A stretch of DNA of 59,543 bases, the filler included. It is 4 parts of 4 records of this genome, joined end to end, with 100 filler letters (N's around TTAATTAATTAA, not from the genome) between each part and the next. Parts side by side here need not be neighbours in the genome. Positions count along the whole stretch, not along the records: positions 1 to 13,937 come from SRR31156797_6598; 3 more parts are not named here. One strand, given 5' to 3'. Every line of letters starts with the position of its first letter. Position 1 is the stretch's first letter. Both the position numbers and the translations under genes were made by a program. This document shows positions 1 through 43,361 of this stretch, in pieces. The notes beneath the pieces were generated by a model. It saw nothing but the letters and a program-made list of their open reading frames with translations. It was not told the DNA's origin and ran no database searches.

Positions 1-8
1 AAAAGGTT

Positions 9-50
9 CTCTGGTCCCGCTGAAAGCGACTGCCGGTAGGCCCGCCAGAG
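9..50. repeat. Short multi-hairpin intergenic element (REP-like or terminator), possibly cut by the window start
   Basis: CTCTGG (9-14) pairs with CCAGAG (45-50) and encloses hairpins CGCT-GAA-AGCG and GCC-GGTA-GGC; lies just past the stop of the minus-strand methyltransferase gene. Confidence 0.3.
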
Positions 51-58
51 GCATTCAC

Positions 59-1234
59 TTATTTTTGTTTACGGGTTCCGGCGTAGAGTTCGTATTCGAG
101 CAACCGACATTCGATTTTGGCGTTCCAGAAAATCTTACGACTCTTGGTACGCAAACCGATGCGCTTGGCAAGACTAGAGTTGCCAGTAAAGACGAAACCG
201 GACTTGCCGCCGCAATGCTTCTTGAAGAAATCTCCAATACCTTTGTACACGGCTTCGAGCTGCTGAATATCACCAAGCCGCTGCCCATATTCCGGGTTGA
301 GCATGACGATACCGGGGCCTTCAGGAATTTCTGTTTCCGAATAATCACAGAGGGCGAATTCGATAAAATCACCGACTCCTGCGAGCCGGGCATTATCCTT
401 GGCGGCCTCGATCGCTTCGGGATCGTGATCGGTCGCTATAATTCGACCTTTAATTTCTGGATTTTCGGCATCTTCGGCCTGACCAAGCATGTCATCCCAA
501 AGTTCTTGATCAAATCCAAGAAGCTGCTTGAAAGCGAAATCATCCCGCAACAAACCGGGAGCACCATTCAGAGCCATAAGAGCGGCCTCAATGGCAAGGG
601 TGCCTGCGCCACACATGGGACCGATGAAATGTCCCCCCTGCTTGGCAAGCTCAGGCCACCCTGAAGACAGCACACAGGCCGCAGCCAGCGTTTCCTGCAT
701 GGGAGCCTTGTGAGGGCGTTTGCGGTACCCACGTCGGGGCAAAGGGTCGCCTGTGGTATCGAGATAAATAGTCGCCTGATTTTCACGCCAATGCAGAAAC
801 AGACAGACACCAGTTGTCTCAGGGCCTGAATCCGGACGAACATCAAACAGGTCCATGAAACGGTCAGCCACGGCATCCTTGACTCGCAAACCAGCGAACC
901 GGGAATCTGTGACCGTTGTGTCGCGAATGGACGCATCCACTCGAAAATATCCGTCTTTGGCAATGAACTCTTCCCATTGAAGAGAACGAATCTCGCGATA
1001 GAGTTCGTCAGTATCAAAAGCGCGGAATCGCTTGAGCTCAAGAAGTACACGATGACCGGTTCGAATCCAGAGATTCAGGTTCATGCAATCCTTAAGTGAA
1101 CCATAGGTCTGAACGCCTGCATCCATGACATACCTGCGAGAATACCCGAGTTGCTCAAGCTCGCGGTCAAGATACTCGGGAATACCCTTGGGGCACGTGA
1201 CAAGAATGGGGGCCTTTTGAGAAAAAATATCCAT
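59..1234 (-). CDS. THUMP-domain class I SAM-dependent RNA methyltransferase (RlmL/YpsC-like)
   Basis: N-terminal THUMP region, RGYR..APMQETLAAA, PMCGAGT SAM motif, NPEYG motif; start set at MDIFSQK after GAGG. Confidence 0.9.
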   Translation of the reverse strand: MDIFSQKAPILVTCPKGIPEYLDRELEQLGYSRRYVMDAGVQTYGSLKDCMNLNLWIRTGHRVLLELKRFRAFDTDELYREIRSLQWEEFIAKDGYFRVDASIRDTTVTDSRFAGLRVKDAVADRFMDLFDVRPDSGPETTGVCLFLHWRENQATIYLDTTGDPLPRRGYRKRPHKAPMQETLAAACVLSSGWPELAKQGGHFIGPMCGAGTLAIEAALMALNGAPGLLRDDFAFKQLLGFDQELWDDMLGQAEDAENPEIKGRIIATDHDPEAIEAAKDNARLAGVGDFIEFALCDYSETEIPEGPGIVMLNPEYGQRLGDIQQLEAVYKGIGDFFKKHCGGKSGFVFTGNSSLAKRIGLRTKSRKIFWNAKIECRLLEYELYAGTRKQK

Positions 1235-1245
1235 AAAAACCTCGA

Positions 1246-2526
1246 TTATAAGGGACGCATGTCCCACTCGACCACAGGATCATGATCGGCGTCGGGACTG
1301 GATGAAGATTCAGATACGGAAGTAGTTCTGACATTGGGCAAAGGTTCAGAACGGGACAAGGCCAGAAAAAAGGCCAAGCCCATGGCAACGCCCAACGCCG
1401 GATCAAACAATAAGGGAGCAACCATCCCCTGGGTAAACAGGACCACAAACAACCCGGCACCCAGCCGGGACATCCTGCGATACAGCAAAACAAACAATAC
1501 AACCAGACAAAGCCCCGGAAGTACCATGCCCCACCCCAAAACAAGCCGAAGCCAGAATGCGGACACCTGCGGTAGATGCGCTCCCATGAGAGCCAATGAT
1601 CCGGTTGCGGCTTCCCAAAGCCCGTTCATTCCGGGCGGAAAAGTCAAAGGTAAAGCCTTGGTCAATGGAAGACCGGTCAAAAGCAGCATGGGGTCACTGA
1701 CAAATAGGGACAAGGATTTGGCCCACAGCCAATAGTCCACATAACGAACGGCTTCGGATGAAGTCGTGGGCAAAAGAAAGGTCACACCGATCAGCAAGAA
1801 AAAAGCAAGCAAAACAACAGTACGAACGGTCTTCGTTCCACGGCCAAAACAGAGAAAAATCCAACCGGCAGCAAACAGACCGGTCCGAGACAGAGTGGCT
1901 GCGATACCAAGCAAAATCAAGAGCCGCCACGCCGACCTTCCCTGATCCGGTTCATATACGCCGCCGTCATTTTCTCCACACCGAAGACTGGCGCACAAGG
2001 AAAGCAGGAGGAGTCCGGCCAGAATGTCTATATTCCCAATCCAGCGAGTAATAGGTGCACTGTGATAAACAGACACCTCGATAGCCAGATCAATGAGACA
2101 CAATAGGCCAAGCAAACCGCCATACCGTTGAAAATCAGCTCGATCCGGCAGACCAAACGTAATAATCCACAAAAAACAGAAAACAAGCATAACCACTGGC
2201 GTCAACTCGATAACCACTGGCACAAGGTGTTCCAACTGATGCACGAAATTTGGACCGTTTTCGGCCATGATGACAACGAGAGTGATGAACATTCCCACTT
2301 CAAAAAAGAACCGCTTTTTAAGACGAGCACCAGACCGGCGAAACAACATGGCGTAAATCGCCCCGATTCCGGCGAGAAGCAACCATGGCAGGAATGGAGA
2401 AACAGGTCGCGCCGAGGGCATGAATACACTCAATACTGTCGCCAACGGCACAGCCACATATGCAACGGCAAGAGGAAATGATGCCAGCCTGGTTATGGCT
2501 CCGAGTACGGGTCGTTCCTGTTTCAT
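1246..2526 (-). CDS. Polytopic membrane protein, possibly O-antigen ligase/polymerase-like
   Basis: Many hydrophobic segments; TLSRTG motif and a periplasmic loop as in Wzy_C/WaaL-like proteins; function uncertain. Confidence 0.6.
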   Translation of the reverse strand: MKQERPVLGAITRLASFPLAVAYVAVPLATVLSVFMPSARPVSPFLPWLLLAGIGAIYAMLFRRSGARLKKRFFFEVGMFITLVVIMAENGPNFVHQLEHLVPVVIELTPVVMLVFCFLWIITFGLPDRADFQRYGGLLGLLCLIDLAIEVSVYHSAPITRWIGNIDILAGLLLLSLCASLRCGENDGGVYEPDQGRSAWRLLILLGIAATLSRTGLFAAGWIFLCFGRGTKTVRTVVLLAFFLLIGVTFLLPTTSSEAVRYVDYWLWAKSLSLFVSDPMLLLTGLPLTKALPLTFPPGMNGLWEAATGSLALMGAHLPQVSAFWLRLVLGWGMVLPGLCLVVLFVLLYRRMSRLGAGLFVVLFTQGMVAPLLFDPALGVAMGLAFFLALSRSEPLPNVRTTSVSESSSSPDADHDPVVEWDMRPL

Positions 2527-2814
2527 ACGCACCGTCAGTTACCTTGTTGGGTAGCGCAGGTAAAGGCGGATTACACACTCCAAAAGAGTCCCCCCAAAGC
2601 CCCACGAAAACGAAATTCTCAACCCACCGCCATCATTGAATATTTGTCGGAGAACCACAGGGGCAAATGTAACATATTGATATAAATAGTTAATTTTACA
2701 ACCACCTAAAGAAATTGAAAATATTGTCCGATACAAAAAAATCCTGTATGGTGGCATGGTGTTACCAAGCCTGGGGGGGCATGTGTGGACAACGATATTC
2801 CGATAGGAGTGTCC

Positions 2815-3357
2815 ATGAAAAAGGTTGCACTGATTAATTCCGGGAAACCGGTTTTCACTGCATTTTTCCTTACTCTGCTACTCGGAATTTTACCGGGATG
2901 CGCAGTAGTAGGTCCGTTGTTGAGTCTGGGCAGTTTTGCCGGACTCGCGCCACTTCAGTATATTTCGACAGCCTATACTGTCGGCGAATTCTCCTATGAG
3001 TACGCTGCCAATGACAAGGACCCCGGTGAAGTCATTGAGGGCAAGATCAACGCCATGGTTTCCGGCGAAGCATTTGAACTGCCCGAATATATGCAGGCCG
3101 ACCCCGCTGGTCCCGAAGCCCCTGTCATGGTTGCGGAAGCAAAGACTGACCACACACCATCCATGGCCGAGGAAGCCCGGCAGCAACGAATTGAAAATCT
3201 CATGGGCCGCCGTCAGGTACAATTTGAACGATTGGAACTGCGACGCATGGCCTTTCTCAAGGCACAATCCAACAATGAGTTAAGCCTTCGCCAGACAGCA
3301 ATGTCCGAAAAGACAAACCTGTTCCGAGGTGCCGTTGACGAGGTCTCATTGGACTAA
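2815..3357 (+). CDS. Hypothetical lipoprotein
   Basis: AGGAG RBS before ATG 2815; signal peptide ending ILPGC; followed by a terminator. Confidence 0.7.
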   Translation: MKKVALINSGKPVFTAFFLTLLLGILPGCAVVGPLLSLGSFAGLAPLQYISTAYTVGEFSYEYAANDKDPGEVIEGKINAMVSGEAFELPEYMQADPAGPEAPVMVAEAKTDHTPSMAEEARQQRIENLMGRRQVQFERLELRRMAFLKAQSNNELSLRQTAMSEKTNLFRGAVDEVSLD

Positions 3358-3382
3358 TTGCACCCGCTCTCCGCTGAATTTC

Positions 3383-3415
3383 AGGCACACGTCCCACCGG
3401 ATGTGTGCCTTTTTT
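3383..3415 (+). terminator. Rho-independent terminator
   Basis: Stem AGGCACACGTCC/GGATGTGTGCCT followed by a T-run. Confidence 0.8.
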
Positions 3416-3461
3416 CGTCTGGATAAATAAAACCAACATGCGTATATCCTTTTTCAACACT

Positions 3462-4346
3462 ATGAAAAAATCACTCACATATACATACGTTCTGCTCATT
3501 ACCAGCATGATGCTGTGGGGCGGCACTTGGGTGGCTGGCCGGGTTCTGGTTCAGTACATACACCCCATGTCCGCAGCTTTCCTACGCTTTACGTTCGCCT
3601 CAGCAACGCTCATCCTGATGTGCTGGAAAACGGAAGGACGCATTCCTCGACTCGCCCGCAACGAAATCATACCGGTCCTCGGCCTCGGTGCGACGGGCGT
3701 ATTCGCCTATAGCTACTTCTTTTTCACCGGACTACAGACGACTTCAGCCGGACGAGCCGCGCTCATAGTGGCCTGTATTCCGGTCTGCATCTCCGTACTC
3801 TCGGCCTTGTTCTACAAGGAAAGATTCGGCCCGATACGCATCGTTGGCGCACTGATTTCTCTCGTCGGGGTATCCGTGGTCATCGCCAACGGCAGTCCTC
3901 TCGCCCTTCTCTCCGAAGGAGTGAGCCGGGGAGACTTCCTGATTCTCGGCTGTGTGGCCAGTTGGACCGCCTATACGATGGGTGGACGATCAGTCACAAA
4001 AACTCTGTCTCCCCTCACTTCAGTGGCATGGTCCTGCATTTTCGGAACGATGCTACTCATCCCCGCAGCCTTCGCAAACGGCCTGATTTCGGATATCGGC
4101 AACGTCCCGCCCGTGGGATGGGTTTGTGTCGTCTTTCTCGGAGTTCTCGCGACAGGATTCGCTTATTGTTGGTACTATGAAGCCATTTCCATCATCGGTG
4201 CATCCAGATCAGGTATCTTCATCAACACGGTCCCTATATTCGCCGTAATCATGGGTTTTTTCCTGCTGGATGAACCTATCCATCTTTCTTTAGCCCTCGG
4301 TGGCTTCATGGTCATCACAGGCGTATACCTAACGAACAGACATTAA
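3462..4346 (+). CDS. DMT/EamA family transporter
   Basis: About 10 TM helices in two EamA repeats; LWGGTWVAGR start and PIFAVIMGFFLLDEPI end. Confidence 0.9.
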   Translation: MKKSLTYTYVLLITSMMLWGGTWVAGRVLVQYIHPMSAAFLRFTFASATLILMCWKTEGRIPRLARNEIIPVLGLGATGVFAYSYFFFTGLQTTSAGRAALIVACIPVCISVLSALFYKERFGPIRIVGALISLVGVSVVIANGSPLALLSEGVSRGDFLILGCVASWTAYTMGGRSVTKTLSPLTSVAWSCIFGTMLLIPAAFANGLISDIGNVPPVGWVCVVFLGVLATGFAYCWYYEAISIIGASRSGIFINTVPIFAVIMGFFLLDEPIHLSLALGGFMVITGVYLTNRH

Positions 4347-4404
4347 TCCTCTCATTGCCAATCCACAGAGCTTGGCGCACAATGGGTTCTCCAAGGAGGA
4401 CATC

Positions 4405-4614
4405 ATGGAAAAACGTTTGGAACGACTGGAAAGCCTTGTGGCTCTTCAGGACAGGACCATGGAAAAACTGAACGATCAGTTGTTTGAACAACAACAGCAG
4501 ATCACAGGTTTGGAACAATTGGTACGTCGGTTGGCGGGTAAAGTCCGCGAACTGGATGCAGACATGGAACAATCAGGCGGATTGGACGTTCCGCCGCCTC
4601 ACTATAACGGATAA
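4405..4614 (+). CDS. slyX: SlyX family protein
   Basis: RLERLESLVALQDRTMEKLN coiled coil and terminal PPPHY motif; AAGGAGG RBS. Confidence 0.9.
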   Translation: MEKRLERLESLVALQDRTMEKLNDQLFEQQQQITGLEQLVRRLAGKVRELDADMEQSGGLDVPPPHYNG

Positions 4615-4623
4615 AGGCGTCCC

Positions 4624-5136
4624 ATGACACACCCTACGGCACAGCAAATCATTGACCATCTCGGACTCATCCCGCACCCGGAAGAAGGCGGCTGGTTTCT
4701 CGAAACCCACCGTTCCAATGAATCTTTTGTGCAAGAGATTTTGCCCAAACGGTATTCCGGCAGTCGCTGCCACTCTACGGCCATTTACTATCTGCTGACC
4801 CCGGACACCTATTCTCACATGCACCGCCTCGTGACCGATGAAATATTTCATTTTTATGCAGGAGATCCGTGCGAGATGCTCCAGCTTCATCCAAATGGAA
4901 ATGGGGAAATCATTACTTTAGGAAACGACCTGCTGTCCGACCAAAAGCCACAGATAAGAGTTCCGAGTTCCTCGTGGCAGGGCATGCGCCTCCTCCCCGG
5001 TGGCACCTTCGCCCTCATGGGTTGCACTGTCGCTCCAGGCTTTGAATTCGCAGACTATTCACACGGCACACGACATGCTCTTATCGAAGAATTCCCTGAC
5101 TTCGAAGCGCAAATCACGCGATTGACAGCCAAATAA
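4624..5136 (+). CDS. Cupin_5 (DUF985) family protein
   Basis: LGLIPHPEEGGWF, STAIYYLL, HRLVTDEIFHFYAG, GCTVAPGFEFAD motifs. Confidence 0.9.
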   Translation: MTHPTAQQIIDHLGLIPHPEEGGWFLETHRSNESFVQEILPKRYSGSRCHSTAIYYLLTPDTYSHMHRLVTDEIFHFYAGDPCEMLQLHPNGNGEIITLGNDLLSDQKPQIRVPSSSWQGMRLLPGGTFALMGCTVAPGFEFADYSHGTRHALIEEFPDFEAQITRLTAK

Positions 5137-5170
5137 GAAGGGGCGTCTTCGTATGAAGACGCCCCCTTTC
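5137..5170. terminator. Hairpin between convergent genes, likely bidirectional terminator
   Basis: Perfect 11-bp stem GGGGCGTCTTC-GTAT-GAAGACGCCCC between the cupin gene and the tail operon. Confidence 0.8.
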
Positions 5171-5188
5171 ACAAATCGACACAAACGC

Positions 5189-5785
5189 TTATACCGACTC
5201 AACGTAACAGACTTCTATGGTCTGCACTTCCTCAGCAGTAACCGCCGCATCCAATCTGTCCTGATAGGCAAGCCGTTGGCCGACAATCGCCCCGGCAATC
5301 AATTCCCAAGCGGCACGGTTTTCAATTATATGCTCTGCCAATGTGGACACGTCCATGCCCCTATTCACGGCAATGATGTCCAAAAGCGGCACACTGGCCT
5401 CGGGGTCAGTACGATATGCAAGGGCTTCGGAATACTGTTGTCCCCAAGTCTGCCGCTCCATCAACCCATACTTGCCTTCAACCTCCATGATAAAGGAATC
5501 CGCAAGATTGGATATTTCCCGCTGTTTAGCTTTGCGGGCGGCATTCATTTTGGCAATTTCATCCACTGTGGCCGTGATGATGCTCTCCCGATAGACCAAA
5601 TCATCATTTTTGCACCACTCGGTTTCATAGGCTGTAAACGGCTCCCGATCGATGGGGACGGCTTCATTATATCCCAACTCATCCCACTGTTCTCGAGATA
5701 GATCAGAAAATTTTCGAATAAGACCGTTGTGTTCGACTTTGGCCGGGGGATTCTGTCGATAAGTACCATCGGAATATCTAAACAT
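5189..5785 (-). CDS. Phage tail-fibre assembly/chaperone-like protein
   Basis: ERQTWGQQYSEALAY..PLLDIIAVNRG pattern typical of proteins encoded after tail fibres; AAGGAG RBS before MFRYSDG. Confidence 0.7.
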   Translation of the reverse strand: MFRYSDGTYRQNPPAKVEHNGLIRKFSDLSREQWDELGYNEAVPIDREPFTAYETEWCKNDDLVYRESIITATVDEIAKMNAARKAKQREISNLADSFIMEVEGKYGLMERQTWGQQYSEALAYRTDPEASVPLLDIIAVNRGMDVSTLAEHIIENRAAWELIAGAIVGQRLAYQDRLDAAVTAEEVQTIEVCYVESV

Positions 5786-5795
5786 GATGTTCTCC

Positions 5796-8279
5796 TTAAA
5801 ATGCGTTGCTGTATTTTGTTGATTCAAGAATGGCGAGACCAACGACTGTACTGGCAGCACCATTGATCCACGCATCCGAACGAATGACCTTAAAGCCCTG
5901 CGATGTCGCAAGGACAACATTCCCTGTCCACTCGGCGCTATTATCCGAGGGGATAAGCCCCTCGTTGACCGGATTGGTCATTGACCTCCGGGTATCGAAG
6001 TTCTGCCAATCAGTAGATGAAGACGCTGTATTTTTGAGGAAGGGAACCGAAAGCAGCTTCCCGCCAAGGCTCACAAACGGACCGTCAGCAAGGCCATTGC
6101 CAACATACGAAAAGGCCTTGAACACGTCTGAATCAGTGAACAGGTACGCGACATATTGACCCGTCGGCGCGTCGTGCGAAAAGCCAAATGAGGTGGCTGT
6201 ATTACTCCACGACATAGAGCTTGCAGCGGTGGTATCAAATTTCAACCCAAAGGCTTGCCCGAGAGCAGTATGGTATATGCGCCAAGGATCTTCCCCGTCC
6301 CTCCGCTTGACCATTGCGAAGGTTACAGGTTTTCCAAATCGATGCTCCACGGTGGTTTCAACGCCTGAAACATGATCAAATGTCACAATCTCAAACCCAT
6401 GCGCACTTCCGGCCTTCAAACAAAGATCGATAAACCTGTCATCAAGTTTATTGCAATTATCATTCGGACCTAATGAATATCCATTGCTATCAAACGATTT
6501 GAGAGCAATGGCAGACGATCTTTCCCACACATCGTAGTTTGTATTCAACATCTTTGTCGCGCCACGCCTAGAGTCGTAAAGTGTCCACTTAAAAGAACAA
6601 TCCCTATTTTTTATATTTACAAAATCAGGACAAAAACCCAATGAGCCAATAGCTGTGGTCCCCACTTTTCCAGTAAAGAATTGAGCTTCGATAAGGTACA
6701 CCGTATCCACGCCCGCCCCCGGAATCAGCATCCGATGTTGCAGATATGCGACAGACCCTGCGTAATCTATGGTAGCGACTTTTTCGTCAGTAATGGTTAG
6801 GGTTCCAAGCGTTTCCCAATGTGTTCCATCATCCGACCCCTGGAATTGTATTTCACGAGAATGATGTTGATAGGTAATTCCATAATTGGAAGCCCCGTAC
6901 CACCGTGCGCGGGAAATTAATTTCGGCTCATCCCATATCTTTCCAATCATCGGAGATAAGCCAGCATTGGCCAACCTCTGAGAACCATTGGAACTGATGG
7001 ACAAAGTTATTCCATTAAATGCTTTGCTCAGATTACCGTCTGAATTGTATGTCCACGTACTTCCAATCGGTATGCCGGCAGCACCATCAACAAGATGTGC
7101 TCCTGCATCCTCGCCTTCTCCCACCCGACAGACGATATCTACAACGGTTGCAGAGACAAGAGGACAGGGAGTTGGGAGTTTACTGGAACAAAGCGGCAGA
7201 TATCCGGCGGGAAGCCAATCGGAGTCTTCGGAACCAAAAGAGACAACACTGCTCAGGGTATCTCCACGGTTGTACTTGCCAAATACCGGGACATAGTCCC
7301 CATCAGACACTGTGGCGACGGTCCCTACAGCAACTCCGTTGTTCCAAATTTCGACGAGAGAATCATCCCTCATGATCCTGAGTTCTCTCAAATCAGCATC
7401 ATACATGATGATTGCTAACGAAGGGAGCAAATTATTTTTAGCGACACTCCCGCCCCAGGAATCACCTGTTAGGCCAACCATGCTTTTGGATGCGCCCTTA
7501 ACCTTCATGATTCCGGAAAAAGCTTGAGTCCCTGACATCGCAGTCGTTTCAACTCTCCATGCCCAACGACCAGTCTTCGGCAAAACATATGTGCCTGTGG
7601 ACCACTCATCGCCTGCACCACCAGTGCATTTTCTGACACAATTTCCATGGGAATACTGAACCGTCCCGTTGTCCAACGAAGACAAAGGATTCAATACACA
7701 AAAGTTATTGGTGGGCGTATCCATGGTCTGCGTGGCATTATTAAAGGTCCAATCATTCCCATTGCCAGAACTGTCTTTTCCCAATCTGGAGGCATCCGAG
7801 AAATTCAGACAGGTATGTTTTATAATATATTCATCCAGCTTCTGACGCCGAACGACAAGACCGGAAACAATATCTGACACTTCCAGAAAATAAAAAGGAT
7901 TTGGCCATGTTGCATTATCATCAAAAACAATCAGGTCAGAATAATAGCCCTTGTCAGTTCCGGCAAACTCAGTCAGGACAGCCGACACGAAAGCGGCATG
8001 GGTTGAAGGGACAGCCCCGGAGAACTCTCCGATTTTCACTGTATTTTTGTAAACATTGACGCGAAGGTTCCCGACTTTCTGAATAGTGATCCAATAGTGA
8101 TTCGTCGGATCGCCAAGCGGTTTGACGGGATTAACGGCTGTCGGCTTGAATCCAAAATGGATTGTACAACCATACCCAACCGTGGCTGAAGAGGAGAACC
8201 CCGACTCACAAAGGACGGAATAGGCTATCTCAATCGGATAGACAGCCCTTCCACCACCTGTTTCCTTTGGTGTGAGCAT
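5796..8279 (-). CDS. Phage tail fibre / receptor-binding protein (SPRY/concanavalin-like and discoidin-like domains)
   Basis: GKDSSGNGNDWT..DTPTNNFCVLNPL, SPRY-like GRWAWRVE, F5/8-like FQGSDDGTHWETL, GFCPDFVNIKNRD and YVGNGLADGPFV motifs seen in phage fibres. Confidence 0.75.
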   Translation of the reverse strand: MLTPKETGGGRAVYPIEIAYSVLCESGFSSSATVGYGCTIHFGFKPTAVNPVKPLGDPTNHYWITIQKVGNLRVNVYKNTVKIGEFSGAVPSTHAAFVSAVLTEFAGTDKGYYSDLIVFDDNATWPNPFYFLEVSDIVSGLVVRRQKLDEYIIKHTCLNFSDASRLGKDSSGNGNDWTFNNATQTMDTPTNNFCVLNPLSSLDNGTVQYSHGNCVRKCTGGAGDEWSTGTYVLPKTGRWAWRVETTAMSGTQAFSGIMKVKGASKSMVGLTGDSWGGSVAKNNLLPSLAIIMYDADLRELRIMRDDSLVEIWNNGVAVGTVATVSDGDYVPVFGKYNRGDTLSSVVSFGSEDSDWLPAGYLPLCSSKLPTPCPLVSATVVDIVCRVGEGEDAGAHLVDGAAGIPIGSTWTYNSDGNLSKAFNGITLSISSNGSQRLANAGLSPMIGKIWDEPKLISRARWYGASNYGITYQHHSREIQFQGSDDGTHWETLGTLTITDEKVATIDYAGSVAYLQHRMLIPGAGVDTVYLIEAQFFTGKVGTTAIGSLGFCPDFVNIKNRDCSFKWTLYDSRRGATKMLNTNYDVWERSSAIALKSFDSNGYSLGPNDNCNKLDDRFIDLCLKAGSAHGFEIVTFDHVSGVETTVEHRFGKPVTFAMVKRRDGEDPWRIYHTALGQAFGLKFDTTAASSMSWSNTATSFGFSHDAPTGQYVAYLFTDSDVFKAFSYVGNGLADGPFVSLGGKLLSVPFLKNTASSSTDWQNFDTRRSMTNPVNEGLIPSDNSAEWTGNVVLATSQGFKVIRSDAWINGAASTVVGLAILESTKYSNAF

Positions 8280-8281
8280 GA

Positions 8282-9268
8282 CTAGACCTCCATATTCTGC
8301 ACAACAAGAATGGTCTTGCGTGCATTGAATTGCTCAACCACCACACGAATTTCCCCAGCCAATGGATTGGGACTCGCCAGCATTTCACTCATCTTGTAAG
8401 AAACTGCCAGATTCAATTCGTAGCCTGCGGGATATACGTGAAAGACATAGGTCCCATCATACGGCAGGGATACATCCGTAAAATGGCTTTCTTCCGTTAG
8501 GGTCCAGACAACATGATTGCGTTCCACCACCAGTTCGGACAAATCCGTACCGGTATGTACCTGGGCCTCATCTCCATAGACAGCCTTGAGCAAACTGCCG
8601 GAAAGAGTCCGAACGATGTTCCCTTCCGAATCAATGGTCTGAAGAACTTCCTCTCCGGTACTGCAACAGGACACAGCCATACCAGTCGCTCCAAAACCAA
8701 GGCCAATCAAGGCCTCCGTGGGATTCGTGGCCCCGGTTCCGCCCTGCGTCACAGAGATAGGAACAGCAACCTGACCAAAATCTATGATCTCCTTATTTTC
8801 CAAATTATCTTGAGCGGCATTCCAACCAAGGACGTTGTCTGCGGCTGGTTCCGGCAAAACCAAACCTTCTACGGCGGATGAAATGCGCAACGAGATCGTC
8901 CTATCGAGCCGTTCCGACAACGCCTGACAAATCATGGTCAGCTTATCCAGAGCCGCTTCATGAGATGCGGCAGGAAAAGCCCCGTTTTCAAGATAATCCG
9001 CCTCCTGGGTCAAAACAGGGCTGCGACGCACAAACAAAACTTCTTCCTTCTGCAAAGTGCGACTCATATGACATACACCGCAGGACTGTTCTCCGGCCCC
9101 AGTCAAAGTATAATCAGAACCCAGAACCTGAACGGTTTCGACTCCTTCAGCATCACTCACAAGGACTTCAACGTCTTCATCCCGCATAAACATAAACGGC
9201 AGTTCAAAAACACGAGTCGACCCATTTCCACTAAAATATTCTTTTGTCTTCAATGATGCGATAGTCAT
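8282..9268 (-). CDS. Phage tail fibre N-terminal anchor protein (T7 gp17 N-term-like)
   Basis: FSGNGSTRVFELPF..DYTLTGAG..RRSPVLTQEADY..FPAASHEAALDKLTMICQ plus VPISVTQGGTGAT fibre motif. Confidence 0.8.
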   Translation of the reverse strand: MTIASLKTKEYFSGNGSTRVFELPFMFMRDEDVEVLVSDAEGVETVQVLGSDYTLTGAGEQSCGVCHMSRTLQKEEVLFVRRSPVLTQEADYLENGAFPAASHEAALDKLTMICQALSERLDRTISLRISSAVEGLVLPEPAADNVLGWNAAQDNLENKEIIDFGQVAVPISVTQGGTGATNPTEALIGLGFGATGMAVSCCSTGEEVLQTIDSEGNIVRTLSGSLLKAVYGDEAQVHTGTDLSELVVERNHVVWTLTEESHFTDVSLPYDGTYVFHVYPAGYELNLAVSYKMSEMLASPNPLAGEIRVVVEQFNARKTILVVQNMEV

Positions 9269-9270
9269 GG

Positions 9271-9738
9271 CTATTTCCCTGTTCCGTAGATTTTCGATCC
9301 CATAGATAAAATGGAACGATTGGGTGACGCGCCACTATTGATACGCAACATATTCGCGCTATTTCTCCCACCCTGAAGATCGGATTCGGCATTTGCAGCT
9401 CCCTCGAACAACACGTCGTCTTCATCCTGCCTATCCTGAATGCGATCAGCATCCCGAACGAGTGCCTTGGAGCCAGACATGGCGAGATTTGACCCGCCCC
9501 ACCCGGCAGCACGTCTGGACCGGCCACGCTCCCTCTCGGATCGCAAGTTTTCAGCGTCACCTGCGGCATGCCGCTCTGTTTCCCAGGCCTTGCGTTTGGC
9601 ATCAACTTCCATGAGCTTGGCCTGCTCTTCAGTGGAATTATTACCCGAAGAAGGTTTCCCCACCATTTTCTGAAAATCCTGGACCAGTCCCAGTCCGTCT
9701 TGAACCATGTTTAAAGCCTGCGTCGAATTGGTTCCCAT
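9271..9738 (-). CDS. Putative internal virion (ejection) protein
   Basis: Small Gly/Ala-rich helical protein with RAAGWGGSNLAMSGS; lies between nozzle and fibre genes as in podoviral gene order. Confidence 0.5.
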   Translation of the reverse strand: MGTNSTQALNMVQDGLGLVQDFQKMVGKPSSGNNSTEEQAKLMEVDAKRKAWETERHAAGDAENLRSERERGRSRRAAGWGGSNLAMSGSKALVRDADRIQDRQDEDDVLFEGAANAESDLQGGRNSANMLRINSGASPNRSILSMGSKIYGTGK

Positions 9739-9773
9739 AATCTTATCCTTATATATTTCAGGGTTTATCCCGG

Positions 9774-11858
9774 TTATTCGTTGACCACCAGATATGGAAC
9801 GATGAGCAAAACCGACATGGGCAGAGGTTGATCCTGCACAATGGTAAGCACACCGTCCCGATTCCAGCCTTTGGGGAAATTTACGATCTTGTCGCCGGTA
9901 AATGCGTCAGGAGCATGCCCCATTGGCACGGCGGCTGTGCGGAAATAGACTGGTTCAAGATGGGACTCATCTGGACCGATCTTTCCACCGAGGGTGTTGT
10001 AAAACCGAGCCGCCACCTTGGTGATACGTTTCTTCTTGGTCTGGGCTGTGCCACGCTGACTCCCCGATTCAATACGCATCGGCTGAACTTTGGAGACAAA
10101 GGGCAGCCCCGCATGGACCTTGGAAGCCGGACGATCAAGCTGAATGAATCCATCTTCCGCCACAGTCCTATCGGCCAAGACAGCTCCGTCAGCGAGTACA
10201 GACACTGTTCGCCCTGCAAGATGTTCCAGTCCTCCCACAACGAGCACAGGCTCGCCCTCATAGGTCACACCACTATCCACAAAAAAACCGTTGGCAATCG
10301 ATCCGTCAAAATCCCCTTCAAGAATTTCAAGGAATCGTCGATCAACTCCTTGCACGACACGACGAACGACAACCCACAATTCATCCCGCTTGTCTCTGTC
10401 ACTGTAAATTGAAGTGACCCCTTCCACGACACCGTCGGTGAGTATCCGAGACCATGCTGCAACTTCCTGATCCGGCACATAGGTCATGGCAACCATGGCC
10501 CCGTCCTTGCGTACACCGTACACAATGGAATCCGGCTCTTGCACATAGGCCATCTGGGTCAAACCACTTTCAGTGATATGTTCGGACAAAATGGTCAGAT
10601 CCTTGGAAACATAGGCGTCGGATTCATATCGATAGGCCATCTCTCGAATCTTCTTGCCCGCCCGTTGAATATAGAGCGTGGCAAATCCGACAGACTCGGG
10701 TCGGGTGGGAGAAGCACCGCTTGTGCCTTCATGGTTGGCTTTGATATTTTCTGGAGTCACGGGTTCACTCATGCCACCGCCCAATGTCCACTCTCCACCC
10801 GCCGTGCCGACCCACAGAAGATTACGAGGGACAATGAACTCAATTCCATTCCCCTGATGACCGGCCAGAGTGACTTCAATGGCGTCGTCATCAAGCGGTT
10901 TTTCTCCAGCGGGGGCAGCAGTCCTGTCGCCTACTTCAAAACATTCCCAAAATTCGCTCTGAAGTTCTCCGGAAGCATCCCAAATGGACTCGATCTGATT
11001 ATTCGCCGGCACATCCTTGAAGGTGATGGTCACGTTCGAGCCGGTAGCCACATAATTTTTCGCGCCTTTGTATCTGTAATACCGAGTGGAGCCATCCCCG
11101 TGCTGTCCCTTGAGACCGTCTTTTGCTTCAAAACCGTCACCGTCGAGCAACTCAATGGTGTCGCCAGCTTTCCCATCACGAAAGCCATCACCATTGGCAT
11201 CCTTGATTTCACGGTCACGCCAGCCGTCGAATGGCACTTCACGAGTCTTCAGACGAAAATCCTTCATCTCTCCAACACGGGACATCCACAAGGTGTCAGG
11301 CTTGTCCGGTATCCCCGCTAAAACCAATCGTTGCTGATAAAAACCAACCACTGACGGATAATTATTCTCGGCCCAAGATTCTGGCTTGCCGGTAAAAACC
11401 ATTTCTTCAATGGTCCACGACTCAGCACTCTCACGCTTCACGGTGCGGGGCGGATGGTCAGAATGTACGACAATGAGCATATCACCGGACTGGGCATACC
11501 GGAGCTGGCTGAATTCCTGTGCCTTGTAGGGGATATCTCCCTCGAATTCGCTCTCTCTTGTCAGAGCTGAAAAGACACGCATACGGCCTTGACCGGACTC
11601 ATTTTCACCGAATTCCACAACAAAAGTTCGTGAACCATCCAGTTCAAAAGGTATCAGCAGTGCCGGCTTCTTCGAATTGATGGCTTCGGCCAAAAATCGA
11701 AAACCGGACCGCCGGGTCGTCCCACCGTGGGGATGTACTTGAAAATTCTCCAGAACTCGACATCCATTAAAATACTTGGAGATATCGGTTCTTCCGTCCA
11801 GACGGGGACTGATTTCACCTGCTGTAAAATTGGTTACTGAGGGTGTGCTTATACTCAT
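9774..11858 (-). CDS. Podovirus tail tubular protein B / nozzle (T7 gp12-like)
   Basis: TNFTAGEISPRLDGRTD..LENFQVHPHGGTTRRSG start, YPSVVGFYQQRL, DLTILSEHI, GLEHLAGRTVSVLADG, QDQPLPMSVL end; AAGGAG RBS. Confidence 0.85.
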   Translation of the reverse strand: MSISTPSVTNFTAGEISPRLDGRTDISKYFNGCRVLENFQVHPHGGTTRRSGFRFLAEAINSKKPALLIPFELDGSRTFVVEFGENESGQGRMRVFSALTRESEFEGDIPYKAQEFSQLRYAQSGDMLIVVHSDHPPRTVKRESAESWTIEEMVFTGKPESWAENNYPSVVGFYQQRLVLAGIPDKPDTLWMSRVGEMKDFRLKTREVPFDGWRDREIKDANGDGFRDGKAGDTIELLDGDGFEAKDGLKGQHGDGSTRYYRYKGAKNYVATGSNVTITFKDVPANNQIESIWDASGELQSEFWECFEVGDRTAAPAGEKPLDDDAIEVTLAGHQGNGIEFIVPRNLLWVGTAGGEWTLGGGMSEPVTPENIKANHEGTSGASPTRPESVGFATLYIQRAGKKIREMAYRYESDAYVSKDLTILSEHITESGLTQMAYVQEPDSIVYGVRKDGAMVAMTYVPDQEVAAWSRILTDGVVEGVTSIYSDRDKRDELWVVVRRVVQGVDRRFLEILEGDFDGSIANGFFVDSGVTYEGEPVLVVGGLEHLAGRTVSVLADGAVLADRTVAEDGFIQLDRPASKVHAGLPFVSKVQPMRIESGSQRGTAQTKKKRITKVAARFYNTLGGKIGPDESHLEPVYFRTAAVPMGHAPDAFTGDKIVNFPKGWNRDGVLTIVQDQPLPMSVLLIVPYLVVNE

Positions 11859-12195
11859 AACTCGCTCGGCTCCTTTTTATCGGGGGCTCGCCCCGGACAT
11901 GCGACAAAGCATAGCCCCGGTTTTCGCACCGGAGAACGATCCGGTATTCACAGGAGTCGAGAGGTATAAAAAAACAACTTGACGGGATTTTTGGGATGAC
12001 GATGAAGGGGATACTTCAATAGCAATGTTTAACCTTCATAATATCAGCATGTTACAAACATACTAAAATTCAGCACGACACTGAAAAAAAAGGAAATGTT
12101 AAAGAATGATATGCGAATGGATACCGAATGGCATACAAAAGCACTGAAAGGAGACCTTGACGATTGTCCATGACAACACAGATTCAAAAAAGCAT

Positions 12196-12235
12196 AAAAA
12201 AACCCTTATTTCAGTATATTAAACCGAAATAAGGG
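12196..12235 (-). terminator. Rho-independent terminator of the small Cys-rich gene
   Basis: CCCTTATTTC/GAAATAAGGG inverted repeat with A7 on the plus strand (U-run on minus). Confidence 0.7.
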
Positions 12236-12264
12236 CGTTATAGACGTTGTACAAATTCACGCGA

Positions 12265-12525
12265 TTAATTCACCGCTGCGGACACCGGTTCGTCACCGCC
12301 TCCCTTCTCACGATTCAAGCGGATAACCTGTGTGGTAAAGGTTGTTTCACCTGGCATACAGGCGGGACACCCTTCGGACAGGATCACGCACCGTTCGTCA
12401 AGAGTAGACACATCGATTCCGGCCAGCTTGAGCAGCCGGGTCGTCATGCCGGGCCGCCAAAGGACTGGTTGGCCGCATCGGTGGCACTCCACATACAGGG
12501 TTTCTGGATCAAATTTCTTTGTCAT
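12265..12525 (-). CDS. Small CxxC...CxxC (zinc-ribbon-like) hypothetical protein
   Basis: ECHRCG and GCPACM motifs; GAGGAGG upstream of MTKKFDP. Confidence 0.7.
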   Translation of the reverse strand: MTKKFDPETLYVECHRCGQPVLWRPGMTTRLLKLAGIDVSTLDERCVILSEGCPACMPGETTFTTQVIRLNREKGGGDEPVSAAVN

Positions 12526-12610
12526 ATGTAGAAAATAATCCTCCTCAGAGGGAATGGCAAGGGCGATGATATTATAATCATTCATATTTGACAGACCGGA
12601 AAACCTTACT

Positions 12611-12625
12611 TGGCATCAAACTTGA
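12611..12625 (+). promoter_or_regulatory. Possible sigma54 promoter (-24/-12)
   Basis: TGGCATCAAACTTGA has correct TGGC-N7-TTG spacing but A instead of C at -12; about 50 nt upstream of the flavoprotein gene. Confidence 0.35.
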
Positions 12626-12677
12626 TATATCCAATCGGTTGGCAATATATTCCACAAAACGCTTTCAAGGACACGTT

Positions 12678-13937
12678 GTGAAAACTCAATATCTGATTAT
12701 CGGAGCCGGACCTACCGGACTGGGCGCTGCTCATCGACTGAAAGAACTGGGCAAAGAGGACTTCCAGATTCTGGAACAGCACGACTATGCCGGTGGCTTG
12801 TCGGCCAGTTTCACGGATGACAAAGGATTCACCTGGGACATCGGTGGACACGTGGTCTTTTCCCACTATGAGTATTTCGACACACTCATGGACTCCCTGC
12901 TCGGCGACGATCGATTGGAGCATGAACGAGAATCCTGGGTCCGTTCCAACAACACATGGGTTCCATACCCGTTTCAGAACAACATTCGCCACTTGCCCAA
13001 AGAGGCACGGTGGGAATGCGTCAAGGGACTGTTACCGGGCAACAGGACCGAAGTCTCGCCCACAAATTTCGCACAGTGGATCGACTCCATTTTCGGGACG
13101 GGCATCGCAAAACATTTCATGACTCTATACAATTTTAAAGTATGGGCCACGCCACCTGAATTGATGCAGTTCAACTGGATCGGCGAACGCGTGTCTGTTG
13201 TTGATCTGAAAAAAGTGCTCAAAAACATCATCCTTGAACAGGACGATGTTGCATGGGGACCAAACAATACTTTCAAATTCCCGCTCAAGGGTGGCACGGG
13301 TGAAATATTCCGGCGTCTGGCTTCACGCATGGAAGACCGTATCCAATATGGCCAATCCGTGGTCGCTATTGATGCCAAAAGCAAAAAAGCCACGACCGCC
13401 GAAGGGCTTGAAATCGAATACGAGACCTTACTCAACACCGCCCCTCTCGACATGCTGGCAAGCCAATGGCTCACTGAAAAGAATAATACAGTGGTGAATG
13501 CCGCAGACAAGCTCACTCACAATTCCGTCTATGTGGCGGGCATAGGCATGGATATCAAAGATGACGCGGAACGTAATTCCCGGTGCTGGATGTACTATCC
13601 CGAGTCGGACTCTCCTTTTTACAGGGTCACGAATTTCCATAACTACTCACCCAACAACGTGGCCAAACCGGGACAGCAACTCGGATTCATGTGTGAATCA
13701 TCCTTCTCCGAACACAAGCCGGAAAAGCTCAACGAACTGATGGACCGCACCATAGAGGGTCTGGTAAACACTTCCATGATGGACGCGGCCAGGAAAGACG
13801 ACATCCTGACCACATGGGATATCGCCGTGGATTACGGATACCCCGTGCCCTGTCTGGAGCGCGACAAGGCTCTTGCCGTACTCCAACCGACGTTGGAAGC
13901 CATGCAAATCTATTCCCGAGGCCGTTTCGGCGGCTGG
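12678..13937 (+). CDS. FAD-dependent oxidoreductase, eukaryote-type UDP-galactopyranose mutase-like (3' truncated)
   Basis: IIGAGPTGLGAA, DIGGHVVFSHY, WVPYPFQNNI, YNFKVWA, WIGERV, WGPNNTFKFP, PFYRVT..NYSP, SRGRFGGW; GTG start. Confidence 0.8.
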
Positions 13938-14037
13938 NNNNNNNNNNNNNNNNNNNNNNNNNNNNNNNNNNNNNNNNNNNNTTAATTAATTAANNNNNNN
14001 NNNNNNNNNNNNNNNNNNNNNNNNNNNNNNNNNNNNN
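13938..14037. other. Artificial contig linker
   Basis: N44-TTAATTAATTAA-N44 (stops in all six frames); ORFs truncated and composition changes on both sides. Confidence 0.98.
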
Positions 14038-27110: not shown

Positions 27111-27210
27111 NNNNNNNNNNNNNNNNNNNNNNNNNNNNNNNNNNNNNNNNNNNNTTAATTAATTAANNNNNNNNNNNNNNNNNNNNNNNNNNNNNNNNNN
27201 NNNNNNNNNN
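27111..27210. other. Artificial contig linker
   Basis: N44-TTAATTAATTAA-N44. Confidence 0.98.
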
Positions 27211-30986: not shown

Positions 30987-31646
30987 CTATTGTACTTTAG
31001 TCTTAAGTAACTTAAGCTCTTGGATTATGTCTGACGGTTCAGCCCTGAATGTGTAGTCTGTCTTTACGAACGCATATGTCACATATCCGTCTGTATCTAT
31101 GATAAATGTTGATGCAAGCGGCACATCATACTGACCTTCGCCGTTATGAGCCTCCATATCTATCCCAAAGCTCTCATATATCGGGATAAGCTCCTCTGAA
31201 ACAGTAAACATTATACCTATCTCTTCTGCATACTTCGATTCAATATCTGTGAGCACTTCGAACTGAAGACCGTGCTTTTCAGATGTTGAAATTGACGAAT
31301 CCGGAAGCTCCGGCGTAATAGCTATGAGTGTCGCCCCTTCAGCTTTGATCTCATCCATAACCTGCTGATAAGCATTAAGCTGTAGATTGCAATAAGGGCA
31401 CCAGCCACCACGGTAGAAAGTAACAACAACAGGACCATCCTCTCTAATCTCTGAAAGCCTTCTGATCATTCCGTTATGATTAGGAAGTGCAAAATCAGTT
31501 AGCTTTTCGCCTACTTTCGGAGCACGATCTACGATACCGGTTTCAGCAAGCCTAGCGAAATCATCAAAAATCACCTTTTTAAAGCTCTCAGGCATCTTTG
31601 AAAGATTGGCTTCTTTAAGTGCAGTTAAGTGTTCTGCTAATGACAT
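30987..31646 (-). CDS. Peroxiredoxin-like AhpC/TSA family protein
   Basis: FYRGGWCPYCNLQL, AITPELPD; AAGGAG RBS. Confidence 0.88.
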   Translation of the reverse strand: MSLAEHLTALKEANLSKMPESFKKVIFDDFARLAETGIVDRAPKVGEKLTDFALPNHNGMIRRLSEIREDGPVVVTFYRGGWCPYCNLQLNAYQQVMDEIKAEGATLIAITPELPDSSISTSEKHGLQFEVLTDIESKYAEEIGIMFTVSEELIPIYESFGIDMEAHNGEGQYDVPLASTFIIDTDGYVTYAFVKTDYTFRAEPSDIIQELKLLKTKVQ

Positions 31647-31690
31647 AATAGTCTCCTTTTCTCATTTAGATTTCGTTTTCATACATTTCC

Positions 31691-31706
31691 TTGAATGATC
31701 ACTCAA
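31691..31706. promoter_or_regulatory. Putative TetR operator 1
   Basis: TTGAATGATCACTCAA imperfect palindrome in the divergent intergenic region. Confidence 0.65.
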
Positions 31707-31740
31707 TGTAGCGCCTCATCTGCGCCTTGTCAAGAAAAAA

Positions 31741-31758
31741 CTTGAATGATTGCTCAAG
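31741..31758. promoter_or_regulatory. Putative TetR operator 2
   Basis: CTTGAATGATTGCTCAAG, same TTGAATGATnnCTCAA core as operator 1. Confidence 0.65.
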
Positions 31759-31805
31759 TTGATTTATTTTGATATTCAGCTAGTATGTTCAAAGGAGCCG
31801 CAGTA

Positions 31806-32384
31806 ATGACAAAAGCCCAGTTCGATAGAGACGAAATCATTGATAAAGCAGTGCAGCTTTTCTGGAGAAAAGGATTCAGCGCTTCGTCTATGCAGGATGT
31901 GGTGAAAACTACTGGTCTGAAACCCGGCTCCATATATCTCGCCTTCGGCAATAAAGAGGGGCTTTTTCGTGAGGCTCTTGAAAGATATGCAAAAATTGGT
32001 GCGGACAAAATCCGCAAAACAATAGAAGAAGCTCCGAGCATCGGCTTAGGCATCTGCCAGCATCTTGAAAATTTTGTTTTAGACTCAACAGAAGAGGATT
32101 TCTGTAGCTGCTTTCTGGTGAAAACGAGGCTGGAGCTAGCCAGAGATGGGAACGAGCTACACAGATATGCATCCGCTATGCTCGACAGTGTGGAGCTGAT
32201 CTTTAAAGAATATCTTATGCAGGAGTACGACGAGGATACCAGCAGAAAGAGAGCAGCAAGCATTATGATGCATATATTCGGGCTGAGGGTATACGGTTAT
32301 CAGGCGGATTCCGCTGAGAAAATGCGGGAGGGGCTCAGGCAGGGACTTTCCTGGCTACCATGGGATACTTTCGATAAGGCGTAG
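31806..32384 (+). CDS. TetR/AcrR family transcriptional regulator
   Basis: FDRDEIIDKAVQLFWRKGF..GLKPGSIYLAFGNKEGLF HTH; AAGGAG RBS before ATG 31806. Confidence 0.92.
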   Translation: MTKAQFDRDEIIDKAVQLFWRKGFSASSMQDVVKTTGLKPGSIYLAFGNKEGLFREALERYAKIGADKIRKTIEEAPSIGLGICQHLENFVLDSTEEDFCSCFLVKTRLELARDGNELHRYASAMLDSVELIFKEYLMQEYDEDTSRKRAASIMMHIFGLRVYGYQADSAEKMREGLRQGLSWLPWDTFDKA

Positions 32385-32413
32385 CACTTCTTTTGTATCC
32401 TACTATAATGCTT

Positions 32414-37160: not shown

Positions 37161-37174
37161 AATAATCTCCTTAA

Positions 37175-38745: not shown

Positions 38746-38755
38746 TTTATATCTC

Positions 38756-40468: not shown

Positions 40469-40471
40469 AAC

Positions 40472-41017: not shown

Positions 41018-41018
41018 C

Positions 41019-43290: not shown

Positions 43291-43321
43291 TTCGATCTCG
43301 CTAATGAATTTTATTAAAGTT

Positions 43322-43340: not shown

Positions 43341-43361
43341 CCTTCATTATGTCAAGACTAA

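Follow-up and report, generated by a model that had tools for sequence, protein, structure and literature searches.

A podovirus-type tail operon and its dispersed partner loci in Pseudodesulfovibrio, a candidate domesticated particle system

What does a set of five phage tail genes do among the housekeeping genes of a bacterial chromosome? The question is raised by a stretch of DNA of 59,543 nucleotides (the window), whose first part carries a minus-strand operon led by the gene for a podovirus-type tail nozzle. The initial annotation took this operon to encode the tail of a podovirus-like particle that had been domesticated in the chromosome and whose head genes lay elsewhere, and the comparisons reported here support that view, as a genome of the same species, G234, carries the head genes at other loci. 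A complete, vertically inherited, dispersed set of podovirus-derived structural genes under purifying selection is present in these bacteria. With a probability of roughly 0.8, the operon encodes the tail of a particle system that is domesticated, co-regulated and spread over several loci, no particular payload being claimed; the cell itself seems to produce phage-like particles for purposes of its own.

The window consists of four contigs joined end to end by linkers (N44-TTAATTAATTAA-N44 at positions 13938-14037, 27111-27210 and 51898-51997). Only positions 1-13937 belong with the tail operon and match G234 (C1:3039739-3053673, 97-98% DNA identity). The remark in the initial annotation that no other phage genes surround the operon holds to the extent that Pfam, PHROG and targeted profile searches detected no integrase, portal, capsid or terminase gene in the window, and that contig 1 contains no integrase, replication or lysogeny genes and neither the contiguous genome nor the att sites of a prophage; however, since the window is composite and only its first 13,937 positions are relevant, the absence of head genes in view covers just 13.9 kb. 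A first scan of species-representative genomes yielded nine related loci from Pseudodesulfovibrio and allied Desulfovibrionaceae. The distribution was then established in 42 species genomes of Pseudodesulfovibrio (the genus set) and in an even sample of 201 Desulfovibrionaceae genomes (the family set).

Tail operon and unlinked head genes

The five open reading frames (ORFs) of the operon are uninterrupted and separated by gaps of 2-35 bases (Table 1), so that the ORF map bore out the close-packed, intact minus-strand genes that had been described. Of the names assigned to them, those of the nozzle (phrog_376), the fibre anchor (phrog_1640) and the fibre (phrog_24898, DUF7483) are upheld by protein families. 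The best phage matches of the nozzle are annotated as tail tubular protein B and are 30-45% identical to it; they include 'tail tubular B' of Pelagibacter phage HTVC203P (36% identity over 100% of the length) and bbp13 of phage BPP-1 (30%). Each of the 230 phage records that match the nozzle is below 60% identity.

Gene 2 had been called internal virion-like, a name that found no family. Alignment with hhalign to gp48 and gp49 of HTVC203P and to bbp12 of BPP-1 gave probabilities of at most 2%, leaving the name with nothing beyond the gene's position, which is always between nozzle and fibre anchor and is kept in 13 sources (the window and 12 loci). Unlike HTVC203P and BPP-1, the window operon has no large ORFs between nozzle and fibre, and the internal core or ejection proteins that follow the nozzle in a podovirus tail module were not found downstream of it in the window. 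Residues 1-125 of gene 3 match the N-termini of 16 PHROG families of tail proteins, fibres or spikes, and by these matches its N-terminal domain is of the type that docks fibres or spikes on podovirus tails; the protein is 47-57% identical across the nine related loci and 78% identical in G177. The fibre gene is the most variable of the operon, since orthologous loci match it only partially, at 27-63% identity. Gene 5 is intact, but its designation as a fibre chaperone has no family support, phrog_2618 being of unknown function, and it is called here a putative fibre assembly factor from its position only. Its start was set at the ATG at 5785, which is preceded by AAGGAG, replacing the start at 5920 in the ORF listing (5189-5920); the N-terminal 80 or so residues are conserved and the remainder varies across loci. 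Downstream of gene 5, the predicted terminator is indeed present at 5140-5165 as a G+C-rich hairpin followed by T's before the convergent cupin gene.

The nozzle is not accompanied by a tubular A gene in the window; in G234 the latter is unlinked, 20 kb off. Genes for tubular A (phrog_394), portal (PF12236), capsid (PF19821) and the large terminase (TerL) were each found in five of five related genomes, unlinked or loosely linked to the nozzle and with the same distribution, as the initial annotation had anticipated. The large terminase is 79-81% identical among those five genomes; in three of them an ordinary linked prophage is present as well, and its copies are much weaker. In G001 tubular A is a solitary gene flanked by an HD-domain gene and rsmB; in G002 it is likewise solitary, with dus on one side and a ZIP transporter gene on the other. 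The portal locus, comprising a small gene, portal and scaffold, lies between a GGDEF gene and MBOAT/NAD(P)HX-dehydratase genes. All immediate neighbours scanned at the tubular-A and portal loci of G001 and G002 are housekeeping genes (for example RsmB, HD-domain, Dus, ZIP, GGDEF, MBOAT).

The search of the genus set retrieved G234, whose nozzle is 100% identical to that of the window. In this genome tubular A, TerL, portal, a Bbp19-like protein, scaffold and the major capsid protein (MCP), together with their small partners, are all encoded by open frames, and the particle genes occupy five loci within about 447 kb of the 3.70-Mb chromosome. In G177 and G001 the loci likewise extend over more than 300 kb.

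Two further gene arrangements were observed. A TPR lipoprotein gene (G234:C1:3093449-3094360) lies on the opposite strand between the 75-aa gene and TerL, and orthologues with 43-53% identity stand beside TerL also in G177, G001, G196, G124 and G002, that is, in all the genomes examined for it. At G001:C1:2130550-2140582, and also in G003:C43 and G005:C49, there is a linked prophage module of the ordinary podovirus type; it holds anchor, nozzle, tubular A, MCP, portal and TerL within 10 kb, in copies that are 31-50% identical to the scattered set.

Table 1. Coordinates of the tail operon and its control elements in the window, and of the particle loci in the same-species genome G234
Feature	Source	Position	Strand	Remarks
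Terminator-like G+C-rich hairpin, between convergent cupin gene and gene 5	window	5138-5170		GGGGCGTCTTC-GTAT-GAAGACGCCCC, then CTTTC
Gene 5, putative fibre assembly factor, 198 aa	window	5189-5785	-	phrog_2618 (unknown function), 1.5e-29
Gene 4, receptor-binding fibre, 827 aa	window	5796-8279	-	DUF7483, 1e-39; phrog_19943, 3e-49; phrog_24898 tail fibre, 1.3e-29
Gene 3, fibre anchor, 328 aa	window	8282-9268	-	best phrog_1640, 4.2e-24
Gene 2, small charged protein, 155 aa	window	9271-9738	-	no Pfam or PHROG family
Gene 1, nozzle (tail tubular protein B), 694 aa, first in tail operon	window	9774-11858	-	phrog_376 'tail protein', E 1.1e-169
Proximal promoter element, -10-like TAnnnT without -35	window	11908-11925	-	GAAAACCGGGGC-TATGCT; read from sequence
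Distal promoter box, presumed activator site	window	11964-11983	-	GTCAAGTTGTTTTTTTATAC; only match in window
Locus 1: nozzle, gene 2, fibre anchor, fibre, gene 5	G234 C1	3044929-3051595
Locus 2: tubular A (adaptor)	G234 C1	3071762-3072334
Locus 3: TerL	G234 C1	3092113-3093396
Locus 3, just upstream of TerL: oppositely oriented TPR lipoprotein gene, 75-aa coiled-coil gene, membrane-protein gene	G234
Locus 4: pre-portal small gene, portal, Bbp19-like gene, scaffold	G234 C1	3314044-3317161		Bbp19-like: PF25181, 1e-18
Locus 4: gene for 307-aa Lys-rich protein (p307)	G234			directly after scaffold
Locus 5: MCP and 82-aa gene	G234 C1	3491197-3492296

Distribution, selection and stages of dispersal

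The initial annotation had expected of a domesticated locus conserved flanks, a distribution that is not patchy, a ratio of nonsynonymous to synonymous substitution rates (dN/dS) well below 1, and closest homologues outside prophages. All of these were found. The nozzle is 65-73% identical in the nine related loci, and the gene order is constant where the contig suffices: CxxC gene, nozzle, gene 2, anchor, variable fibre, gene 5, cupin, slyX and EamA. The CxxC gene is present upstream in eight of the nine loci and the cupin gene downstream in seven, the misses being contig ends, so that every related locus reaching that far has the same flanks. The copies in linked prophages are merely 31-39% identical.

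Within the genus set, nozzle orthologues (53-100% identity) occur in 41 of the 42 species, as do MCP orthologues (73-100% identity), of which 40 are full-length and open; G229 is the one genome that lacks both. Across the family set, 125 of 201 genomes have a nozzle match at E 1e-10 or better, with graded identity. The nozzle reaches at least 50% identity in 29 of them, and all 29 also have portal (at least 57%), MCP (at least 59%) and tubular A (at least 55%). In other family genomes the copies are only 30-53% identical and mostly lie in contiguous phage-type clusters. The large terminase of type A is 64-84% identical in 12 of the 29 element-bearing genomes, not counting the query genome G001. 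It is not a universal component, being absent from G039, G040, G088, G186 and G022; these five genomes were checked and all have another terminase type, located 2-20 kb from the portal in the first four and on a separate contig in G022. When the 201 genomes are ranked by relatedness to the window using the CxxC gene, a single-copy host gene, the 19 best matches are all element-bearing, which indicates that the bearers form a coherent group of relatives.

Selection was estimated between the window and G177 (77-79% DNA identity). The dN/dS is 0.041 for the nozzle (dS 1.45), 0.127 for gene 2, 0.097 for the anchor and 0.101 for gene 5, with dS within 1.2-1.6. Both the dN/dS (0.04-0.13) and the dS of element genes are comparable to those of the host neighbours, namely cupin (0.055, dS 1.78), slyX (0.065, dS 0.85) and CxxC (0.113, dS 0.86). 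Element proteins are conserved as well as the host neighbours or better: identities are 81-99% for MCP, 79-94% for TerL, 73-94% for portal and 64-89% for nozzle, against 67-75% for EamA and 65-83% for cupin. Pairwise identities of element and host proteins are correlated (Pearson r 0.83-0.93, dominated by one close pair; Spearman 0.29-0.71), which is weak evidence. Taken together, distribution, flanks, selection and the CxxC ranking indicate that these phage-derived structural genes are chromosome-resident and vertically inherited.

Related genomes present several degrees of scatter. The nearest phages keep the order TerL-portal-scaffold-MCP-tubular A-nozzle, and a contiguous phage-type relative with 40-63% identity is found in G092:C7. 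In G039, portal, scaffold, MCP, the 82-aa gene, nozzle and anchor are contiguous and tubular A is inverted beyond the portal. G037 has the phage order TerL, portal, scaffold, MCP, tubular A, nozzle and anchor with host genes, including the cupin gene, interposed. Three or four loci lie within 20-40 kb in G196 and G124, and the scatter is full in G001, G177 and G234. With every stage from contiguous to scattered available, one can study how a phage genome comes to be broken up within a host chromosome and yet keeps its function.

A common promoter and the genes behind it

The region upstream of the nozzle (11859-12264) had been regarded as ordinary intergenic sequence. This proved incorrect, as it holds a conserved, dedicated promoter that is shared by the nozzle, tubular A, the pre-portal gene, MCP and the membrane-protein gene, that is, by every locus except the terminase. 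A distal GTCAA box lies 70 or 80 nt upstream of the proximal element, GAAAACCGGGG-TAnnnT. The distal box has the form (C)CTGTCAAG..., and other subclades use the palindrome variant CCCTGTCAACAGGG; the middle element is ACATTC..ACATT, and the proximal one reads GAAAACCGGGG(C/T)-TAnnnT with no -35. In the window, the distal GTCAA precedes the proximal element by 70 nt, and 55 nt separate that element from the nozzle ATG.

In G234, G177, G001, G211 and G219 the distal box precedes the RHS loci as well as those of tubular A, portal, capsid and the membrane protein. Allowing up to one mismatch, the 20-nt box has 7-9 matches per genome in five genomes, against 0-1 for a reversed-pattern control. Of 30 upstream regions, taken from nine genomes and the window and ranging from 42 to 68% G+C, a pattern script recovered the layout in 29; the remaining one was missed by the pattern. 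The spacing from GTCAA to TAnnnT is 70-71 or 79-80 nt in 28 regions, the two classes being one helical turn apart; the 85 nt obtained for G040 was measured from a GTCAA taken to be the wrong one. The exact distal box does not serve as a genus-wide marker, with five or more matches in only 15 of 42 genomes, the others using the CCCTGTCAACAGGG-like variant. Since such variants occur in other members, the zero exact-box matches in G229 say little.

The presence of the same promoter at all loci but that of the terminase suggests that one dedicated activator or sigma-like factor probably reads it and turns the loci on together. A regulator gene was not identified among the genes at or behind promoter sites. 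The CxxC gene upstream of the nozzle was considered for this role and rejected, as 108 of the 201 family genomes carry this host gene in single copy, many of them without the element.

Extra copies of the promoter precede genes for short RHS/YD proteins of 417-749 aa (TEN_YD-shell, 1e-15 to 1e-20), which end in a canonical ...DPxGL followed by unrelated C-terminal tips. Downstream of these genes are orphan core-end fragments and small ORFs, in the layout of polymorphic toxin/immunity arrays. G234 has two such promoter-RHS loci, one of them 3 kb upstream of the portal operon, and G001 has at least four. Of 12 RHS genes in five further genomes, nine have the same 79-81 nt geometry (two of two in G124, five of five in G002, one of one in G037 and, less clearly, one of one in G039), and the three genes of G196 also have both boxes, set further apart. 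In one RHS type, the N-terminal 80 or so residues match the start of the 307-aa protein with 42-45% identity (E 1e-16 to 1e-17); the gene for this protein follows the scaffold in G234 and MCP in G002. RHS homologues are found in 24 of the 29 element-bearing genomes, versus 42 of the 172 others. The gene for the type VI sheath protein TssC (PF05943) was detected in none of the 42 genus genomes, the E. coli control being positive, and no PAAR was present among the Pfam matches of the RHS proteins. The idea that the RHS genes descend from a phage ejection protein was abandoned, as neither the loci of HTVC203P and BPP-1 nor the prophage of G001 showed any similarity.

Other genes and elements are associated with copies of the promoter. 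The same promoter precedes a kinase gene in G001, and a one-mismatch box in G211 (C1:2954620) stands before a deacetylase/GT4 fusion gene and a GT2 glycosyltransferase gene, so that modification of surface polysaccharides may be under the same control there. At G001:C1:3923014, a full promoter copy precedes the gene of a 193-aa Cys-rich protein with no family, whose third-position G+C of 0.54 is unusually low in this 65% G+C genome. One promoter copy is followed by a leader with two conserved hairpins (G234:C1, about 3453600-3453790; also G177, G211 and G001). The second hairpin, GGGGCGGGCATTGGGTCCGCCCC followed by T's, resembles an intrinsic terminator ahead of the RHS gene (the kinase gene in G001), and the pair could possibly act as an attenuator or antitermination switch. 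An identical one-mismatch match, GTCAAGAAGATTTTGTGTGC, occurs at G234:C1:2908758, G177:C1:3097277, G211:C1:2175425 and G219:C115:51795; it apparently falls where a coding sequence begins and has no proximal element with it, and is probably a chance match and no promoter.

Particle, payload and comparison with known systems

The element genes derive from a phage related to the BPP-1 and HTVC010P types. In the proposed mechanism, heads would assemble from portal, scaffold and capsid protein and would be filled by the terminase; no small terminase was seen beside TerL, which would fit unspecific packaging. Adaptor, nozzle and fibres would then complete a short tail, and the particle, released possibly via the membrane-protein pair, would bind neighbouring cells through the fast-evolving fibre. 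Production and release of particles, a single promoter-reading factor and unspecific packaging by the terminase are what we infer from the gene set. Since related phages have genomes of 34-43 kb, the capsid would hold a few tens of kb, and a particle of such size would be unable to carry its own genes, dispersed over 447 kb. It would therefore not propagate as a phage and would work like a gene transfer agent (GTA). A GTA-like role is the most economical reading, and the co-regulation of RHS genes makes toxin delivery a serious alternative. As the payload, host DNA has a little less than an even chance; RHS toxins, alone or as well, are clearly less probable, and another payload or none takes what is left.

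Several points weigh against a domesticated particle system, which is known here from its genes; the head genes were read in G234, a genome of the same species as the window's first contig. TerL is without the shared promoter, having only a short conserved region in common with the oppositely oriented TPR gene. A small terminase, an endolysin and a large ejection or core protein were not identified among the genes at or behind promoter sites and near TerL, and the holin-like role of the membrane protein comes from a weak match (phrog_2524, 1e-7) and a reading of its sequence. The 'clade' of bearers rests on the ranking of one host gene within a genome sample, and the identity cut-offs for 'orthologues' were chosen after bimodal identity tables had been seen. 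Some copies are damaged. In G177, the second-closest genome, MCP is cut after about residue 212 with unrelated DNA beyond, the scaffold has an in-frame stop and p307 is absent; the nozzle is split in G211, the portal has a TAG in G186 and is in two pieces in G029, and MCP is partial in G102. Read across the genomes, the decay is one of scattered, lineage-specific losses in an otherwise intact set.

These damaged genes, along with the lysis enzyme and small terminase that were not found, are what would be expected of an old defective prophage, broken by rearrangement and kept by chance or for the benefit of single genes without any particle being made. Such an origin is nevertheless very improbable: nozzle and MCP are kept in 41 of 42 species, four structural genes occur together in 29 of 29 genomes across genera, the dN/dS of 0.04-0.13 is host-like, protein identities equal or exceed those of host neighbours, and the promoter geometry is kept at every locus from 42% to 68% G+C. 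G177, with tail operon, tubular A, portal and TerL intact and MCP and scaffold broken, could also be taken to mean that the operon makes a headless tail, either a podovirus-type tailocin or an adhesin, to which head genes are irrelevant, and the purifying selection on tail genes between the window and G177 agrees with this. However, G177 is alone among 41 genomes in having a truncated MCP, the remaining part of which is 93-95% identical to that of G001, so that the break is recent; head and tail genes co-occur in 29 of 29 genomes and have one promoter; and we know of no way in which a nozzle with fibres could act on a cell without a DNA-filled head, given how podoviruses eject. A headless tail is thus hardly credible. 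The least probable proposal is an anti-phage device, in which host-made structural proteins would interfere with related podophages or serve as decoys. Related contiguous phage-type clusters do exist in the family (G092:C7 and G165:C127/C54, and the linked copies in G001, G003 and G005), but for interference the cell would have no need of a complete matched set, from terminase, portal, scaffold and capsid to adaptor, nozzle and fibre.

More weight attaches to a headed bacteriocin, in which RHS polymorphic toxins, made from the same promoter, would travel in or on the particle and be delivered to neighbours, immunity genes would protect kin, and DNA packaging would only pressurise the head. The extra promoter copies before RHS genes with DPxGL and a variable tip, the geometry shared by nine of the 12 genes in further genomes, the resemblance of one RHS type to the head-operon 307-aa protein, the enrichment of RHS homologues in element-bearing genomes, the lack of TssC in the genus set, the large ejection proteins missing from the tail locus and the rapid diversification of the fibre gene all speak for it. 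Co-regulation is not physical association, however, and RHS genes also occur in 42 of the 172 family genomes without the element and were not found in five of the 29 with it. The RHS proteins span about the last third of the YD shell model (Pfam, approximately 600-866 of 909), so that a closed shell may not form; the commoner RHS type is without the shared N-terminal domain, and the phage relatives and the G001 prophage show no RHS similarity. Promoter copies before the G001 kinase gene and, with one mismatch, the G211 glycosyltransferase genes imply a regulon wider than the particle, and the terminase is highly conserved, as fits a need for DNA. On balance a headed bacteriocin is doubtful, and it is likewise only a tentative suggestion that the podovirus-derived headed particle is the vehicle of RHS toxins, with the shared N-terminal domain as the ticket in and the fibre targeting competitors. 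If true, a protein-injecting headed particle would stand in for type VI secretion in a genus without a detected sheath gene (0/42).

The domesticated particle system can be compared with several known ones. To our knowledge, all genetically defined GTAs derive from long-tailed phages, most of them in Alphaproteobacteria, and RcGTA of Rhodobacter capsulatus, the Caulobacter GTA and BaGTA of Bartonella are of such descent. Like these dispersed-locus agents, the present system has chromosome-fixed, vertically inherited phage structural genes at several loci, probably under common control, and its own genes would not be packageable. Unlike them, it comes from a short-tailed BPP-1/HTVC010P-like phage, resides in Desulfovibrionaceae, has no main cluster, even the capsid, adaptor and nozzle genes being apart, and includes RHS toxin cassettes in its regulon. 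A GTA-like particle of Desulfovibrio desulfuricans, Dd1, was reportedly described by Rapp and Wall in 1987 and is said to be short-tailed. The hosts of the present system belong to the same bacterial family as that of Dd1, which is of another genus.

Vertical inheritance and ectopic loci of RcGTA are treated in PMC6854486 and PMC11841831. According to PMC6854486, GTA small terminases lie directly upstream of TerL; none was found beside TerL here. PMC11841831 describes the characterisation of non-alphaproteobacterial GTAs, including that of Desulfovibrio, as only cursory. For Dd1, Table 1 of PMC6854486 predicts Ddes_0720 as a small terminase adjoining the large terminase; as far as that table goes, this implies a compact cluster, unlike the present system, the two being compared by description. 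In the records returned by a literature search pairing Pseudodesulfovibrio or Desulfovibrionaceae with gene transfer agent, no description of the system was found; the RHS link lay outside that search.

BPP-1- and HTVC010P-like podophages have homologous nozzle (30-45%), tubular A (phrog_394), portal (PF12236), Bbp19-like protein (PF25181, 1e-18), scaffold (phrog_3742), capsid (PF19821) and terminase. In these phages the genes form one contiguous module with large internal virion, replication and lysis genes, whereas in the present system they are scattered between housekeeping genes, and no counterpart of the large internal proteins was found. Tailocins such as R- and F-type pyocins are without head genes and derive from long tails. 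Domesticated tail genes and fast-evolving receptor-binding fibres are common to tailocins and the present system, but in the latter head genes are conserved and co-regulated, with MCP, portal, scaffold and TerL intact in G234. The RHS proteins resemble type VI-delivered Rhs/YD toxins in their YD repeats, DPxGL core end, variable C-terminal tips, orphan fragments and small downstream ORFs, and differ from them in being only 417-749 aa long, in having no PAAR match and in being expressed from the particle promoter.

The full gene set of a short-tailed particle is here assigned to its loci one by one, in a genus for which several complete genomes exist. The recognisable promoter that marks its whole regulon opens tests of particle-borne DNA exchange among sulfate reducers and of the factor that reads it, and the RHS cassettes in the regulon of a genus without a detected type VI sheath gene point to a possible new route of toxin delivery.

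The remaining contigs of the window differ in content. ORFs that run across the linkers are artefacts at those ends, for example in the amine oxidase gene ending at 13985 and the GH88 gene ending at 13990, and no tRNA was found anywhere in the whole window. Contigs 2 and 3 (14038-51897), with 38-48% G+C, encode GH88, GH2, GDSL esterases, DUF4450, a haem-uptake ABC system, TonB/ExbBD and a molybdopterin oxidoreductase. Contig 3 (compared as 30987-47000) has no DNA match in G234, which suggests that it is probably DNA of another organism sharing the bin or assembly. Contig 4 (51998-59543), with G+C up to 53%, carries genes for a PEP-CTERM protein, 2-oxoacid:ferredoxin oxidoreductase and glycine cleavage.

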